IMG/VR virus record: IMGVR_UViG_3300028481_000068
Source: a virus
Taxonomy: Duplodnaviria > Heunggongvirae > Uroviricota > Caudoviricetes
DNA length: 5,876 nucleotides
Direction: 5' to 3' (one strand)
The position numbers and the translations under genes were made by a program. Each line of letters begins with the position of its first letter. Position 1 is the first letter of the stretch. The notes below the pieces were generated by a model. The model was given only the letters and a program-made list of their open reading frames with translations. It was not told the origin of the DNA and ran no database searches. Below, piece after piece: positions 1,769-5,854 of this stretch.

Positions 1769-1783
1769 TTACCGTTGAGGTAA
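1769..1783. promoter_or_regulatory. Operator-like dyad TTACC-GTTGA-GGTAA, abutting the -10 of the leftward early promoter
   Basis: Perfect 5+5 inverted-repeat half-sites with a 5-bp spacer. Member of an eight-copy family confined to intergenic regions. Confidence 0.6.
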
Positions 1784-1811
1784 TAATTATGCGTATATGG
1801 TTTGATGTCAA
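1783..1811 (-). promoter_or_regulatory. Putative leftward early promoter (pL-like): -35 TTGACA, 17-bp spacer, -10 AATTAT
   Basis: Minus-strand TTGACA at 1811-1806 and AATTAT at 1788-1783. The -10 overlaps the first base of operator 1769-1783, and a second operator lies 19 bp upstream of the -35. Hexamers were chosen by eye and the -10 is a weak match. Confidence 0.4.
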
Positions 1812-1830
1812 TAGATATGAGTTAAAAAAA

Positions 1831-1845
1831 TTACCCGTTAGGTAA
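1831..1845. promoter_or_regulatory. Operator-like dyad TTACC-CGTTA-GGTAA, upstream of the leftward promoter
   Basis: Perfect half-sites. Centre-to-centre distance to site 1769-1783 is 62 bp. Confidence 0.6.
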
Positions 1846-1855
1846 TCGAATAGGC

Positions 1856-1880
1856 AATAAAAAAGCCGCCATAAGGCGGC
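1856..1880 (-). terminator. Rho-independent terminator at the end of the repressor gene
   Basis: On the minus strand: GCCGCC-TTAT-GGCGGC hairpin (1880-1865) followed by TTTTTTATT. The plus-strand reading lacks a T-tract, so it is probably unidirectional. Confidence 0.6.
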
Positions 1881-1902
1881 TTACTTACTGAAAAATATGG
1901 TT

Positions 1903-2487
1903 TTATTGTTTGTTTTTTTCGTTTTGGTTGATGACAAATTCAATGTAACTTTCGATCTTTGCTTTCTCGGTTTCGGGTAACAATGCGTAGCGCGAGCGAT
2001 CATAGTTGATGGTCGCAGGGTCGTGCGGGTGAATCAGTAATTCATAGCCGTGACGCCCGAATGCGGATGCAACATTCTCCAGGGTGGAAATGGAAACGCT
2101 GACCTCATTGTTTAACAGGCGGCTGATTGTCACCTGGGCGACGCCGGATGCGCGGTGTAGTTTTCCCTGCGTTGAAAGGTCGCGGCTTTCGCTCATCCAG
2201 CGTTCCAGGTTGTGAGCCGCCAGCTGACCAATGTCGCTTGGTCCGACAGGCTGAAAACCTTCCTGAGAAAGCGAGCGATCGATATCAAGCCAGTTACGGG
2301 GTTTATTGGCGGCAGCTTCAATTTTTCGCGCAACCTGGTCGCCGATAACCTTCTTGCCAAGAGCCCAGCGGTTTACCAGATTTGCCTGAGTTCCAAGTTT
2401 TTCTGCCATCCGCGTCTGAACACCATTGAATTCACGGTCGATCAAGTCGTTGAGATTTTGCCTGCGGACGTCCTGGATACTTTTCAT
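1903..2487 (-). CDS. Phage repressor-like DNA-binding protein with two XRE-type HTH segments and no recognisable LexA/S24-type autocleavage domain, 194 aa
   Basis: ORF-track protein. HTH-like segments QTRMAEKLGTQANLVNRW and GVAQVTISRLLNNEVSVSISTLENVASAF. I see no Ser/Lys peptidase-like C-terminal domain. It is divergent from the Cro-like gene, with shared operators in the 154-bp intergenic region. Confidence 0.7.
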   Translation of the reverse strand: MKSIQDVRRQNLNDLIDREFNGVQTRMAEKLGTQANLVNRWALGKKVIGDQVARKIEAAANKPRNWLDIDRSLSQEGFQPVGPSDIGQLAAHNLERWMSESRDLSTQGKLHRASGVAQVTISRLLNNEVSVSISTLENVASAFGRHGYELLIHPHDPATINYDRSRYALLPETEKAKIESYIEFVINQNEKNKQ

Positions 2488-2542
2488 TTTCTGGAAAATC
2501 GCCTCATATATGAATCAGTAGATGATTCAATTTAAAGCAATA

Positions 2543-2557
2543 TTACCCAACAGGTAA
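2543..2557. promoter_or_regulatory. Operator-like dyad TTACC-CAACA-GGTAA in the divergent immunity region
   Basis: Perfect half-sites, between the repressor start (2487) and the Cro-like start (2642). Confidence 0.6.
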
Positions 2558-2559
2558 AT

Positions 2560-2574
2560 GCACCCCATAGGTAA
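2560..2574. promoter_or_regulatory. Degenerate operator-like site GCACC-CCATA-GGTAA
   Basis: 8 of 10 half-site positions match. Lies 3 bp from site 2543-2557, resembling a weak third operator in a tripartite array. Confidence 0.3.
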
Positions 2575-2587
2575 CTATCCTTGATTT

Positions 2588-2616
2588 TTGTTACCTTATG
2601 GGTGAATATTTATTAT
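2588..2616 (+). promoter_or_regulatory. Putative rightward early promoter (PR-like): -35 TTGTTA, 17-bp spacer, -10 TATTAT
   Basis: Hexamers at 2588-2593 and 2611-2616, by eye. An alternative pairing is TTGATT at 2581-2586 with GAATAT at 2604-2609. Drives the Cro-like gene. Confidence 0.35.
2591..2605. promoter_or_regulatory. Operator-like site TTACC-TTATG-GGTGA inside the rightward promoter
   Basis: 9 of 10 half-site positions match. Lies within the predicted spacer of the PR-like promoter. Confidence 0.5.
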
Positions 2617-2641
2617 CTGAAATAAATATCAGGCAATAGCT

Positions 2642-2872
2642 ATGAGCGATAACGGACATTTCGATTTCAAAAAGCACTGGCTTGCACTTACTCCGGATGA
2701 GCGTGAAGCCTTCGCACAGGAAGCCGGAACGACGAGTCACTATATCCAGACTCACTTAACAGGTAAGCGCAAAATGCCAGGTAAGGTATTGATGAATGGG
2801 CTTTTTAAAGCCTGTAAAACAAGACAATGGCTGCGCTCAAAAGCAGAACTGGCATACTTCTTCTACTCATGA
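2642..2872 (+). CDS. Cro-like small HTH DNA-binding protein, 76 aa
   Basis: ORF-track protein MSDNGHFDFKKHWLALTPDEREAFAQEAGTTSHYIQTHLTGKRK... Divergent from the repressor across the operator region and followed by an intrinsic terminator. Called Cro-like from size, position and a putative HTH; family not verified. Confidence 0.55.
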   Translation: MSDNGHFDFKKHWLALTPDEREAFAQEAGTTSHYIQTHLTGKRKMPGKVLMNGLFKACKTRQWLRSKAELAYFFYS

Positions 2873-2894
2873 TATCCAGCCACAAACCTCTGTA

Positions 2895-2916
2895 GACCGC
2901 CATCCGGCGGTCTTTT
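2895..2916 (+). terminator. Rho-independent terminator downstream of the Cro-like gene (tR1-like position)
   Basis: GACCGCC-ATCC-GGCGGTC, a 7-bp GC-rich stem, followed by TTTT. Confidence 0.5.
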
Positions 2917-2927
2917 CATATCTATTC

Positions 2928-2942
2928 GTACCTCAAAGGTAA
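2928..2942. promoter_or_regulatory. Operator-like site GTACC-TCAAA-GGTAA just after the Cro terminator
   Basis: 9 of 10 half-site positions match. Lies 17 bp upstream of a possible -35 TTGATC (2960-2965), which has a weak candidate -10 CAAAAT (2983-2988). Confidence 0.35.
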
Positions 2943-3022
2943 CAAAAAACCAAATCTGGTTGATCTTTTTTTTGTGTCAGCACAAAATAACCGTAATCCC
3001 AATACTAATAACAGGGCTTACC

Positions 3023-3223
3023 ATGGAAATCATTACACGTATTGATGCCGCAAAGCGCGGACTTAAACGCTACTACACCGGAAAACCATGTAAGCACGGA
3101 CATGACAGTGAACGCTGGGTTTACAACGGACACTGTGTTGAGTGCACCATGGAATCAAACCGTCGCATCAGGGCAGAGATTAAGCAGATCATGATTAATT
3201 CCTCCCCACAACATTCAAGCTGA
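3023..3223 (+). CDS. Small Cys/His-rich putative zinc-binding protein, 66 aa (cII-like position, function unknown)
   Basis: ATG 3023 with AGGG 6 nt upstream; I prefer this over the ORF-track TTG start at 2960. Protein MEIITRIDAAKRGLKRYYTGKPCKHGHDSERWVYNGHCVECTMESNRRIRAEIKQ... has a C-x-H-x-H ... C-x2-C arrangement. Confidence 0.5.
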   Translation: MEIITRIDAAKRGLKRYYTGKPCKHGHDSERWVYNGHCVECTMESNRRIRAEIKQIMINSSPQHSS

Positions 3224-3238
3224 TAGCGGAGATTAATC

Positions 3239-4054
3239 ATGAGCAGACATGCAACAGATTGGGCCTGGGAGACAGATCCAGGCAGCTCATCATTAAAGCT
3301 CATACTGCTCTCGATGGCTGACAGAGCCGATGAATATAACCTCTGCTACCCCAGCATAGAACGCCTCGTTAAAGACACTTGTCTGAATAAAAAAACCGTG
3401 CAGGCCGGACTTATATCGCTCATGAAAATGGGGCTTATTTCAGATACCGGAGAGAGAAAGGGAGCGACGAAAAGAGTGCGGGTTTTCTCTCTTAATATAA
3501 CCAAAAAAGGGAACATTAAAGGCAACCTAGAAGGACGTAATGAACCCGAAAACGGTAATGTTCCCGAAAACGGGAATATACCCAAAAACGGGATGTTGAA
3601 TGATCCCAAAAACGGGATGTTGAATGATCCCAAAAACGGGATCCAGAACCAGTCATATAACCAGTCATTTAACCAAGAGAGGGAGAGCAGGACAAAAACC
3701 GGGGATTCTGTGCCTCATGACCCCGGCGCAAACAACGCCGTGATGAATAACTTTGTTCCTCCTGGTGGGCCAGGGCAATTAGGCAAATTTGTCATGCATG
3801 AACAATGGCAGCCATCAGATGACTTTCTTCGGAAAAGCTCATTGCAGGGGATCTACCTGGACAGTATGCCAACGGCACAGGAACTTGCAGAGTTCAGAAT
3901 TTACTGGATGGCTGAGGGTAAGGCATACCATCAGGCACAGTGGGAGCAGAAGCTGGCAAGGCGGCTGCAGATTAGCAGACAGAAGCAATCAACATTACCT
4001 GATAACAACGTTCCGCACTGGAACAGCCCTGAAGCATGGGAGGATTTCTTGTGA
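3239..4054 (+). CDS. Replication initiator, lambda O-like: N-terminal HTH origin-binding domain, repetitive linker, C-terminal domain of the DnaT/O type; 271 aa
   Basis: ORF-track protein. SD GGAG lies 7 nt upstream of the ATG. The linker NGNVPENGNIPKNGMLNDPKNGMLNDPKNG is encoded by the iteron array, as with ori inside lambda O. It lies immediately upstream of, and overlaps, the P-like gene. Domain names are from memory. Confidence 0.75.
   Translation: MSRHATDWAWETDPGSSSLKLILLSMADRADEYNLCYPSIERLVKDTCLNKKTVQAGLISLMKMGLISDTGERKGATKRVRVFSLNITKKGNIKGNLEGRNEPENGNVPENGNIPKNGMLNDPKNGMLNDPKNGIQNQSYNQSFNQERESRTKTGDSVPHDPGANNAVMNNFVPPGGPGQLGKFVMHEQWQPSDDFLRKSSLQGIYLDSMPTAQELAEFRIYWMAEGKAYHQAQWEQKLARRLQISRQKQSTLPDNNVPHWNSPEAWEDFL
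3545..3645. repeat. Iteron array: five direct repeats of core CCC(G/A)AAAACGG(G/T)A at 18-, 18-, 24- and 24-bp spacing; putative origin of replication
   Basis: Copies start at 3545, 3563, 3581, 3605 and 3629. Copies 3 and 4 are identical over 24 bp. Each core carries a CCCG/CGGG dyad around an A-tract. Followed by the tandem AACCAGTCAT(A/T)T x2 (3647-3670). Located inside the O-like coding sequence. Confidence 0.75.
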
Positions 4055-4836
4055 ACAACGTTTTTACCGCGATACAAAACCGTGACGGAGAAGCCCTTTC
4101 TCGCATGTCAGGTTATGAGCATCAGTACACTAACAATGACAACGTGGTGAACATGTCAGCAGAGAGGCTTGTTGATGCCCTTTTCAAACAGTTGAAACAA
4201 CTGTTTCCGGCGGCAGTGGTAACCAACCTGAAGACGCCAGAGCAGGAAGTTGCTGCAAAACAGCAGTGGATTGCTGCGTTTGCCGAAGGGGGGATCCGAA
4301 CCCGTGAACAGGTTTCTGCTGGTATGCGCCACGCCCGCGCCAGTGAATCTCCGTTCTGGCCGTCGCCAGGGCAATTTATCAAGTGGTGCAAAGACAGCAA
4401 GATGGTTCTTGGCGTCACCATTGACGATGTGATGGCGGAGTTTCACCGGTACAGCAAGGAAAAAAGTTTATATCCTGGTGGTCCCGAAAGATTCCCGTGG
4501 CGGCATCCGGTTATGTACTGGGTCGTATGTGATACCCGCCGTGCAATGTATCAGCGCCAGCTTAGCGAGATTGAGGTTGAGAAACACGCGCGCAGGATGC
4601 TCGATGATTGGGCGAAAAAGGTGGCTTCCGGACAGCAGATACCCGATCCGGTGATCAGCATACAGGCAAAGCCAGAGCCCATGAGTACACCTCCGGACAC
4701 AGGGAGAGACGTTTACCATCCACCAGGGCGAAGTTTCGGGTGTATGCCTAACGCCGCCACCCTGGGGGGAATAACACCGGCGCAGTGGCTGATGGAGGAA
4801 TACAGGCGGGGAAAGGCGTCAGGATTTATCAAGTAA
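4051..4836 (+). CDS. Replication protein P-like (replicative helicase loader), 261 aa
   Basis: The segment AAKQQWIAAFAEGGIRTREQVSAGMRHARASESPFWPSPGQFIKWCKD matches my recollection of lambda P (...RRQWVLAFRENGITTMEQVNAGMRVARRQNRPFLPSPGQFVAWCRE...). I chose the GTG start at 4051: GGGAGGA lies 6 nt upstream and it overlaps the O-like stop (GTGA). The ORF-track ATG at 4036 is an alternative. Confidence 0.85.
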   Translation: MNNVFTAIQNRDGEALSRMSGYEHQYTNNDNVVNMSAERLVDALFKQLKQLFPAAVVTNLKTPEQEVAAKQQWIAAFAEGGIRTREQVSAGMRHARASESPFWPSPGQFIKWCKDSKMVLGVTIDDVMAEFHRYSKEKSLYPGGPERFPWRHPVMYWVVCDTRRAMYQRQLSEIEVEKHARRMLDDWAKKVASGQQIPDPVISIQAKPEPMSTPPDTGRDVYHPPGRSFGCMPNAATLGGITPAQWLMEEYRRGKASGFIK

Positions 4837-4841
4837 TACCA

Positions 4842-4861
4842 GCGCGATAGCGCATTTTTTT
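4842..4861 (+). terminator. Possible weak intrinsic terminator after the P-like gene
   Basis: GCGC-GATA-GCGC, only a 4-bp stem, followed by a run of seven T (4855-4861). Confidence 0.3.
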
Positions 4862-4873
4862 ACGTCTCGATAA

Positions 4874-4888
4874 TTACCTGTTGGGTAA
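4874..4888. promoter_or_regulatory. Operator-like dyad TTACC-TGTTG-GGTAA, upstream of the third promoter
   Basis: Perfect half-sites, 19 bp upstream of the -35 TTGATT. Confidence 0.6.
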
Positions 4889-4907
4889 TAAAGTGTTCTA
4901 AAATCTA

Positions 4908-4936
4908 TTGATTTCGTGTCTTATGTGGTTTTTAAT
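4908..4936 (+). promoter_or_regulatory. Putative rightward promoter downstream of the replication module: -35 TTGATT, 17-bp spacer, -10 TTTAAT
   Basis: Hexamers at 4908-4913 and 4931-4936, flanked by operator sites at 4874-4888 and 4936-4950. The spacing is identical to the pL-like module (operator, 19 bp, -35, 17 bp, -10 overlapping the second operator by 1 nt). Confidence 0.45.
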
Positions 4937-4950
4937 TACCTCAGGGGTAA
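4936..4950. promoter_or_regulatory. Operator-like dyad TTACC-TCAGG-GGTAA overlapping the -10 and the 5' leader of ORF 4954
   Basis: Perfect half-sites, ending 3 nt before ATG 4954. Confidence 0.6.
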
Positions 4951-4953
4951 ATC

Positions 4954-5298
4954 ATGAGAAAACAGATACAGGCTCTTGGTCGACTCAAAACAGGCCAGAT
5001 GAACAAAACAGAATCTGCGTATTGCCAGCACCTTGAGCTGCGTAAACGTGCAGGAGAAATCGCCTGGTATCGATTCGAGGGTATCAAGCTGCGGTTAGCT
5101 GACAACACGTTCTATACGCCCGATTTTGCTGTGATGCTCGCCACCGGCGAGATGGAACTGCACGAAGTGAAAGGTTTCTGGACCGACGACGCCAGGGTGA
5201 AAACCAAAGTCGCTGCAGATCAGTATCCGTTCAGAATCATCGGGGTAACTGTTAAGCCAAAGAAAGCAGGTGGTGGCTGGAACATCGAAGAGTTCTGA
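4954..5298 (+). CDS. Small PD-(D/E)XK-fold nuclease-like phage protein, 114 aa (possibly DUF1064-type)
   Basis: ORF-track protein with FYTPDFAV ... MELHEVKG, which fits a PD ... E-x-K motif. First gene downstream of the operator-flanked promoter. DUF1064 naming is from memory and unverified. Confidence 0.6.
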   Translation: MRKQIQALGRLKTGQMNKTESAYCQHLELRKRAGEIAWYRFEGIKLRLADNTFYTPDFAVMLATGEMELHEVKGFWTDDARVKTKVAADQYPFRIIGVTVKPKKAGGGWNIEEF

Positions 5299-5359: not shown

Positions 5360-5854
5360 ATGGAAAGTAATATCAAAGGGTTAGTTTCCGCCGGGCATGA
5401 GATGGCTTCGGAACTGAAAGCAGAATGTGGTGCCGTTGATATGCGCAGTGTGGCAAAGCTGATCAGCGATTTGGCAACGCAACTGGAAGTGCAACTGGTG
5501 CGTGCTAATGCGCTGGCCGAAGACCAACAGAAAGCGATTGAGTCAATTAAGCAGGCTGATGCGGCTGTTAAGTTGGCACACGAGAAGTTTTCAGCGCTGG
5601 CGGCGGAGAATGCAAAGCTGAAGAAGTTCTGCAAAGACGCTGCATTCGATGCCGATTACGAAGCAGAGCTAGGTATGGAGAGAGGTGGATTCAGTGATGC
5701 ACTTAACGAAATCAAAACCCCGGCCACCGACGCATTCCTGGCTGAAGTGCGGGCGCAGGGGGTAGAGATGTTTGCTGACCATCTGTTGTGCCCAGACCTT
5801 GATGACACTATCCGTGACTTTGCTGCCCAGCTTCGCAAAGGAGGCAACCAGTGA
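5360..5854 (+). CDS. Hypothetical coiled-coil phage protein, 164 aa
   Basis: ORF-track protein. SD GAGGG lies 5 nt upstream of the ATG. Ala/Glu/Lys-rich central region (ALAEDQQKAIESIKQADAAVKLAHEKFSALAAENAKLKK) suggests a coiled coil. No family recognised. Confidence 0.5.
   Translation: MESNIKGLVSAGHEMASELKAECGAVDMRSVAKLISDLATQLEVQLVRANALAEDQQKAIESIKQADAAVKLAHEKFSALAAENAKLKKFCKDAAFDADYEAELGMERGGFSDALNEIKTPATDAFLAEVRAQGVEMFADHLLCPDLDDTIRDFAAQLRKGGNQ

Follow-up and report, generated by a model that had tools for sequence, protein, structure and literature searches.

Salmonella phage SPC32H carries a switch composed of a non-cleavable repressor, Rep, and a tetrameric antirepressor, Ant. Rep is reported to contact palindromic DNA in tetrameric form, the paired N-terminal domains being drawn from different dimers, and Ant inactivates Rep by splitting this tetramer (PMC9638917). 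A second report assigns DNA binding to the N-terminal domain of Rep, dimerization to the middle domain, and tetramerization and antirepressor binding to the C-terminal domain. It names F187 and F190 as tetramer-interface residues, attributes to the C-terminal domain a fold associated with DNA looping (TetDloop, shared with Rco and p53), and describes the repression mode of switches of this type as not extensively characterized (PMC9986798). For Salmonella phage epsilon15, the sequence record (AY150271.2) lists features carrying the terms "protein_bind," "repressor," and "lysogeny" that read ATTACCAAAATGGTAAT, ATTACCCAAAAGGTAAT, ATTACCAAAATGGTAA, and ATTACCCTTTTGGTAAT and correspond to the palindrome ATTACC-N5-GGTAAT. 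Here, we analyze a 5,876-base stretch of viral DNA (IMG/VR record IMGVR_UViG_3300028481_000068; the whole stretch is referred to below as the window) whose control regions contain eight copies of the dyad TTACC-N5-GGTAA. These dyads are very probably the operators of a lysogeny repressor of the SPC32H Rep type encoded by the prophage.

The window spans the immunity/replication region of a phiV10/epsilon15-like temperate podophage of the genus Uetakevirus and shares 96 to 98% identity with the same region of Escherichia phages vB_EcoP_PAS61, phiv142-3, and phiV10. Our assignment of the dyads draws on motif statistics, on their positions relative to conserved promoter elements, on synteny, and on homology within the analysis itself; the tetrameric binding of palindromic DNA by the homologous repressor and the site annotation in epsilon15 are taken from the literature and the sequence records.

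The dyad in the window and in related genomes

Perfect copies of the dyad (n = 5) begin at positions 1769, 1831, 2543, 4874, and 4936 of the window, and near-perfect copies begin at 2591 (TTACCTTATGGGTGA, 1 mismatch), 2928 (GTACCTCAAAGGTAA, 1 mismatch), and 2560 (GCACCCCATAGGTAA, 2 mismatches). All eight, the three imperfect ones included, had been listed in an initial annotation made from the letters of the window. Its positions for the perfect copies proved exact, as did its claim that such a dyad would rarely arise by chance: among 200 dinucleotide-preserving shuffles of the window, none contained even one perfect copy. When up to 2 mismatches are allowed, the whole window holds 10 matches against 1.55 expected; the two that the initial list omitted, at 1246 in the exonuclease gene and at 2752 in the cro-like gene, are coding and lie at chance background. 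The eight listed sites all fall within the 635 noncoding bases of the window, in agreement with the earlier statement that none is coding. When these 635 bases alone were shuffled, matches averaged 0.0004 with no mismatch, 0.02 with up to 1, and 0.28 with up to 2, versus 5, 7, and 8 observed, and the observed counts were reached in 0 of 5,000 shuffles. The site at 2560 is insignificant by motif score alone; we accept it as a candidate operator because perfect sites of epsilon15, SPC32H, and BUCT711 align with it in register.

An identical repressor is encoded by 80 IMG/VR contigs, over which the presence of each site was counted. The loci with this identical repressor yielded 112 distinct variants of the perfect site in which the 5-bp (base pair) centre and the flanks vary, extending to natural variation the initial observation of a variable centre between fixed half-sites; in this set of perfect sites, the half-sites are fixed by the selection itself. 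The extended consensus shows a flanking A/T preference (A-TTACC-N5-GGTAA-T). Evidence of conservation that does not depend on anchoring to the motif comes from MAFFT alignments of the control regions of phages whose Rep proteins are 42 to 100% identical. Mean column identity in these alignments is 69 to 72%, and columns without any variation are concentrated at the half-sites and the promoter hexamers.

A whole-phage scan for intergenic enrichment, put forward as a check in the initial annotation, was carried out on six complete genomes (phiV10, PAS61, Tyrion, BUCT711, epsilon15, and SPC32H) and revealed strong enrichment. Each genome of ~39 kb contains 8 to 11 perfect sites, compared with 0.04 expected, and 11 to 18 sites with no more than 1 mismatch; 73 to 93% of the latter lie in the 6 to 8% of the genome that is noncoding (binomial P of 3e-8 to 4e-16). 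The positions recur from genome to genome. Sites are found upstream of terS, the portal operon, the lysis genes, and int (the last always a GGTAT variant) and in the divergent ant/tailspike region, as well as in four arrangements that are also present in the window: a pair at the leftward early promoter (PL), a triple between the repressor and cro-like genes (OR), a single site after the cro-like gene, and a pair at a promoter downstream of the replication genes (P3). Several matches counted as coding sit in doubtful annotations, such as Tyrion gp39, which overlaps the PL region. Another is phiV10 terS, whose first 60 bases are intergenic in three relatives. Its annotated start (41) encloses the motif copies at 87 and 105 within the gene, and the equivalent copies lie upstream of terS in epsilon15, SPC32H, and Tyrion; from this comparison, the terS start codons of phiV10 and PAS61 have probably been called too early.

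Three of the sites annotated in epsilon15 (32554-32570, 32616-32632, and 35906-35922) are the counterparts of window sites 1769, 1831, and 4874. The first two lie in the interval that separates the repressor gene from the leftward early genes, and the third follows the replication genes. Further annotated sites in epsilon15 stand upstream of the terminase, gp3/portal, and tailspike genes, and the OR and post-cro dyads are present in its sequence yet unannotated in its record. By sequence, by adjacency to rep, and by synteny, the dyads of the window would thus belong with the epsilon15/SPC32H-type operator (ATTACC-N5-GGTAAT). The initial annotation was correct that the motif is not that of lambda, P22, or 434, but the motif is not an unfamiliar one, since it equals this operator. 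Epsilon15 and the window share the palindrome, the genus, the PL pair, the three sites between rep and cro, the single site after cro, and the 62-bp pair after the replication genes. They differ in that the two repressors are only 42% identical and in that epsilon15 has a third site in the PL region, 76 bp away, which the window lacks; moreover, only part of the copies carry an annotation in the epsilon15 record.

The two groups also differ in the centre of the dyad. Phages with phiV10-type Rep prefer TTACC-Y-NNN-R-GGTAA, whereas the centres in epsilon15, SPC32H, and BUCT711 are A/T rich, and their middle base is always A or T. This group-specific centre could be a determinant of specificity, or it could reflect mere base composition. 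The core of the phiV10 group, ACCT-N3-AGGT, resembles the palindrome of the MqsA antitoxin, a resemblance that serves as a lead only. A search of full-text literature for the letters of the motif returned nothing relevant, the primary SPC32H and epsilon15 papers being outside its coverage.

The half-site is constant over a wider range of repressors. Near Rep homologues with 52 to 65% identity in E. coli and Serratia chromosomes, whose helices deviate slightly (NLVSRW, NLISRW, NLINRW), TTACC forms the only recurrent 5-N5-5 dyad. A protein search down to 52% identity found the recognition-helix variants NLVNRW, NLVSRW, NLINRW, NLISRW, and NVISRW, and the half-site was unchanged everywhere; the corresponding IMG/VR scan for divergent repressors returned only repressors that were 100% identical.

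Paired and clustered sites at the predicted promoters

The leftward early promoter, PL, is predicted on the minus strand at 1783-1811, with a -35 hexamer TTGACA (1811-1806), a 17-bp spacer, and a -10 hexamer AATTAT (1788-1783); it scores 10 of 12 matches in a consensus scan, and both CTATTGAC and the -10 hexamer are conserved across all relatives. Two perfect sites accompany it. The PL-proximal operator (TTACCGTTGAGGTAA, 1769-1783) starts on the final base of the -10 hexamer, which places its centre at about +1. The PL-distal operator (TTACCCGTTAGGTAA, 1831-1845) is located 62 bp farther upstream, shortly after the rep terminator. Each of the two is kept in 79 of the 80 loci with an identical repressor.

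On the plus strand, P3 repeats the layout of PL. This putative promoter of the operon downstream of the replication genes (4908-4936) has a -35 hexamer TTGATT (4908-4913), a 17-bp spacer, and a -10 hexamer TTTAAT (4931-4936), and it was missed by the promoter scan because position 2 of its -10 hexamer is T; (C)TATTGA and the -10 hexamer are conserved in nine relatives. The P3-distal operator (TTACCTGTTGGGTAA, 4874-4888) and the P3-proximal operator (TTACCTCAGGGGTAA, 4936-4950) are both perfect and again 62 bp apart, and the proximal one begins at the last -10 base. Those loci with an identical repressor that reach this far keep the pair, and in up to nine relatives the layout of both modules is preserved to the base. 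Among neighbouring perfect sites less than 150 bp apart, counted over all loci, 102 of 113 distinct pair regions have a spacing of 62 bp, and 107 have one of 61 to 63 bp.

Two further features accompany these pairs. Conserved A/T tracts adjoin the distal operators, GGTAATTTTTT at PL (1846-1852) and GGTAATAAAAT at P3 (4889-4897), and might bend the DNA between paired operators. At P3, the centre of the proximal operator, GGGG (GAGG in relatives), coincides with the Shine-Dalgarno sequence of the DUF1064 gene, whose ATG (4954) follows 3 nucleotides (nt) past the operator; the implied mRNA leader is ~11 nt.

In the OR region, three sites are spaced 17 and 31 bp apart and stand in register in all 8 genomes aligned. 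Site a (TTACCCAACAGGTAA, 2543-2557) is perfect, is kept in 80 of 80 loci, and has invariant columns in the 8-genome alignment. Site b (GCACCCCATAGGTAA, 2560-2574) begins 17 bp from site a and has both of its mismatches in the left half, while ACC...GGTAA is invariant. Site c (TTACCTTATGGGTGA, 2591-2605) has 1 mismatch, is kept in 80 of 80 loci, and is in register in all relatives. It occupies the -35/spacer region of the rightward promoter of the cro-like gene, between the conserved TTGATT and the -10 hexamer. This PR-like promoter (2582-2616, plus strand) would use TTGATT (2582-2587), whose TTG is invariant in the OR alignment, or alternatively TTGTTA (2588-2593) as its -35 hexamer and GAATAT or TATTAT (2605-2616) as its -10 hexamer; the scan matched TTGTTA-17-TATTAT, and the exact hexamers are our predictions.

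The right half of site a coincides with a conserved minus-strand TTTACC. Together with TTAAAT, this hexamer is a plausible promoter for rep (2530-2558, minus strand; -10 TTAAAT at 2535-2530, -35 TTTACC at 2558-2553 inside site a, spacer 17 bp). Both ATT.AA and GGTAAA are invariant in the OR alignment, and the consensus scan did not call a promoter at 2530-2558. The rep start codon itself lacks a well-spaced Shine-Dalgarno sequence; a GAGG lies 14 nt upstream.

A single site follows the terminator of the cro-like gene (GTACCTCAAAGGTAA, 2928-2942). Its left half is degenerate, and it is present with no more than 1 mismatch in 56 of the 80 loci. All six relatives retain ACC-N5-GGTAA without change, together with a weak left half (GTACC, ATACC, or ACACC). 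That this imperfection is kept in every relative suggests that the site would be a tuned, weaker operator. Its centre lies ~60 bp upstream of the start of a putative promoter for the 66-amino-acid (aa) gene and the replication operon (2960-2988, plus strand; -35 TTGATC, -10 CAAAAT), predicted from an invariant 14-mer, GGTTGATCTTTTTT, located 25 bp downstream of the site and from the conserved -10 hexamer. We had considered the site as the proximal operator of a leftward promoter, based on an inverted repeat with the P3 region, and dropped this in favour of an upstream operator of the conserved rightward promoter.

Rep and the alternatives

The repressor gene (1903-2487, minus strand) encodes a 194-aa homologue of SPC32H Rep. 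A phmmer search against the PDB matched it to SPC32H Rep (5d50_A; also 5d4z) over residues 1 to 190, full length and colinear, with E = 4e-42. By this homology, its predicted domains are an N-terminal helix-turn-helix (HTH) DNA-binding domain (residues ~1 to 70), a middle HTH_3-like dimerization domain, and a C-terminal domain for tetramerization and Ant binding. Pfam matched only HTH families, with HTH_3 at residues 106 to 147. This match maps to the dimerization domain, so the description "two helix-turn-helix motifs" in the phiV10 annotation is misleading as to function. The presumed recognition helix, NLVNRW, is invariant among the Rep proteins of the window, Tyrion, BUCT711, epsilon15, and SPC32H (43 to 78% identical to the window protein in this alignment), and the linker and middle domain have diverged between the window protein and that of SPC32H. 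At the C terminus, SPC32H residues F187 and F190 align with Y181 and the invariant F184 of the window repressor, and I.YD..Y..LP..EK.KI is invariant.

The window repressor is identical to that of phiV10 and 100% identical to ORF21 of phage ZX5. When ORF21 was overexpressed, no free phage remained, and the mRNAs for holin and endolysin fell by 99.97 to 99.99%; the study defined no operator (PMC9782041).

The likeness to the SPC32H switch may extend to induction. Pfam found no peptidase S24 domain, the domain of RecA-dependent autocleavage, in the window repressor, as expected of this family of switches; induction would not, on this ground, proceed through RecA-mediated cleavage. An antirepressor gene would lie outside the window. 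In phiV10, p24 (20543-20837) is 88% identical to SPC32H Ant, whereas the two repressors share only 42% overall, and a canonical LexA box, CTGTATAAATACACAG, stands 22 bp upstream of the p24 start. Kim and Ryu reportedly placed the ant gene of SPC32H under LexA control in 2013. The window and SPC32H have in common the full-length Rep homology, the DNA-binding helix, the C-terminal aromatic pair, the lack of an autocleavage domain, and the motif at the same places in the genome; they differ in overall Rep identity and in that binding at the window sites is predicted from sequence.

We propose that each dyad would be contacted by a pair of N-terminal HTH domains through the helix NLVNRW. The initial annotation had attributed the sites to a dimeric HTH protein; the SPC32H homologue is reported to act not as a plain dimer but as a tetramer that pairs domains from different dimers (PMC9638917). 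At PL and P3, the proximal operators, starting on the final base of the -10 hexamer and hence covering about -7 to +8, would block RNA polymerase. The distal operators, 62 bp upstream (about six helical turns) on the same face of the DNA, would most likely stabilize binding cooperatively. One Rep tetramer possibly holds both paired sites and loops out the promoter: the fixed spacing of about six turns, the "trans" architecture of the tetramer, and the loop-associated C-terminal fold together suggest that a single tetramer may bridge each pair. At OR, site c would shut off the rightward promoter and with it the cro-like and replication genes; site a, overlapping the -35 hexamer of the putative rep promoter, would probably mediate autoregulation of rep. 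The weaker site at 2928 would act upstream of the promoter of the replication operon. Induction would occur through the small LexA-controlled antirepressor encoded outside the window, which would dismantle the Rep tetramer. The motif upstream of the terminase, portal, ant/tailspike, lysis, and integrase genes in relatives suggests that the repressor may directly silence nearly every transcription unit.

Several observations weigh against this proposal or parts of it. A loop of 62 bp would be very tight, and binding of each pair by two separate tetramers is equally possible. The promoter assignments are predictions, all of which except PL score below the scan threshold. The epsilon15 record gives no basis for its "protein_bind" assignment. 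Within the family, the half-site and the recognition helix never change, so it is co-occurrence and position, and no correlated change, that tie Rep to the motif. Finally, the 76-aa Cro-like protein (2642-2872, plus strand) is 53 to 84% identical across the family with a nearly invariant HTH, AGTTSHYIQTHLTG, and thereby matches the invariant half-sites as well as Rep does; conservation does not separate the two proteins.

The Cro-like protein is the most substantial competitor: it might bind the motif instead of Rep or, as in lambda, share a subset of the sites, namely those between rep and cro, and so keep the repressor from being made in the lytic phase. This HTH protein, encoded divergently from rep, occupies the position of a cro analogue, and over the HTH it weakly resembles the N-terminal domain of Rep (27% over 41 aa, E = 0.001). 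The helix with which it would recognize DNA, TSHYIQTH, is unlike QANLVNRW of Rep, and in relatives the motif also lies upstream of terminase, portal, tailspike, lysis, and integrase genes, where binding by a Cro acting in the lytic phase would be counterproductive. The epsilon15 record assigns its sites to the repressor, and overexpression of Rep alone silences the lysis genes (PMC9782041). The differing helix and the presence of the motif at late, lysis, and integrase promoters make the Cro-like protein unlikely as the sole binder, and we regard a role for it at these sites, alone or shared, as doubtful overall.

The occurrence of the motif at promoters throughout the genome could also be explained by a general phage activator or by a host factor, with Rep binding elsewhere; candidates would include a host transcription factor or a phage protein such as the AlpA- or PerC-like proteins of the left operon. 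We know of no E. coli regulator with a TTACC-N5-GGTAA site. The motif accompanies Rep homologues in phages of Escherichia, Salmonella, Klebsiella, Enterobacter, and Serratia, the proximal sites are centred on +1, a position for repressors and not for activators, and no other recurrent dyad able to serve as an operator was found near rep. Another regulator is, on this evidence, highly improbable. The resemblance of PL and P3, which share their layout and the CTATTGA -35 region, raises the further idea that a promoter cassette was duplicated and that the dyad has no role in protein binding. However, the sequences that surround and separate the dyads have diverged freely, while the ten half-site bases are fixed in more than 100 distinct variants, and the OR and post-cro sites stand in different sequence contexts. 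Nor would duplication account for the symmetry of the dyad or for its enrichment between genes (P down to 4e-16), and we consider the likelihood of this reading negligible.

The assignment of the dyads to the Rep-type repressor is therefore the one we retain. The initial proposal, which named the repressor and/or the Cro-like protein, gains support from Rep homology, the epsilon15 annotation, the overlap with promoters, and the intergenic enrichment. A bolder version can be put forward only tentatively: that one Rep tetramer clamps both operators of a pair through its two "trans" N-terminal pairs, forming a micro-loop of about six turns, and that all epsilon15-like phages share one operator specificity, a single repressor directly silencing every transcription unit (early, replication, late, lysis, and integrase) with specificity between phages set, if at all, by the central spacer. 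Half-sites, recognition helix, and antirepressor are all retained even though Rep identity has dropped to 42%, which suggests that such a shared specificity may exist.

Other repressor systems, gene context, and significance

In its logic, the arrangement resembles the lambda CI/Cro switch: a divergent repressor/cro pair, three sites between the two genes, further sites at the leftward promoter, and palindromes of variable centre that overlap promoters. The half-site sequence is different, and the window repressor is homologous to Rep, not to CI, is tetrameric by homology, and has no S24 domain. Whereas lambda has three adjacent 17-bp sites at both OL and OR, the window has three sites at OR spaced by 17 and 31 bp and two at PL separated by 62 bp. 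Unlike lambda, the window has operators at a third promoter as well, and its relatives have them at promoters of late, lysis, and integrase genes. Given the missing S24 domain and the different number and spacing of sites, the dyads are not lambda-type CI operators.

Phage P1 provides a precedent for dispersed operators: one immunity repressor, C1, acts at many operators scattered over the genome and is inactivated by antirepressors. The likeness is one of design only: C1, from a protein family unrelated to Rep, binds as a monomer to asymmetric 17-mers, and the window sites are symmetric dyads. LacI with its auxiliary operators and Rco of pLS20 are tetrameric looping repressors with operator pairs at a fixed helical phase around a promoter. 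Rco recognizes direct repeats in two operators 75 bp apart; the window pairs, at 62 bp, lie at the short extreme for a loop, and looping by Rep is conjectural.

To the left of PL, the window carries a RecE-like exonuclease gene (477-1298) and two small genes (1295-1609 and 1597-1749), all on the minus strand. The intrinsic terminator of the repressor gene (1863-1882, minus strand) and another after the cro-like gene (2894-2913, plus strand) are also annotated in the phiV10 GenBank record, which contains no operators. The product of the cro-like gene matches PHROG 35, "transcriptional repressor" (E = 5.6e-13). The remaining genes, all on the plus strand, encode the 66-aa protein (3023-3223), a DnaT/O-like replication protein (3239-4054), a lambda-P-like protein (4036 or 4052-4836), the DUF1064 protein (4954-5298), whose PHROG family is annotated as Holliday junction resolvase, and an Eae-like protein (5360-5854). 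Within the DnaT/O-like gene, an iteron-like array (3537-3645) comprises 5 to 6 copies of CCC(G/A)AAAACGG with periods of 18 and 24 bp, including 2.6 perfect copies of a 24-mer. By analogy with lambda gene O, this array is probably the phage replication origin.

The operator type is already known in the family, since the same palindrome is annotated in epsilon15, and the window does not represent a new kind of system. Four aspects are possibly new: the strictly phased 62-bp pairs; the genome-wide spread of the sites; the conservation of half-site, recognition helix, and antirepressor despite the divergence of Rep to 42% identity; and the group-specific dyad centre. The analysis provides a complete predicted operator/promoter map for the phiV10-type immunity region. 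Prophages of this type are very common in E. coli, as indicated by the 80 contigs with an identical repressor. For the SPC32H-type Rep/Ant switch, the map predicts that Rep would bind cooperatively at a fixed 62-bp phase and would directly repress nearly all phage promoters.

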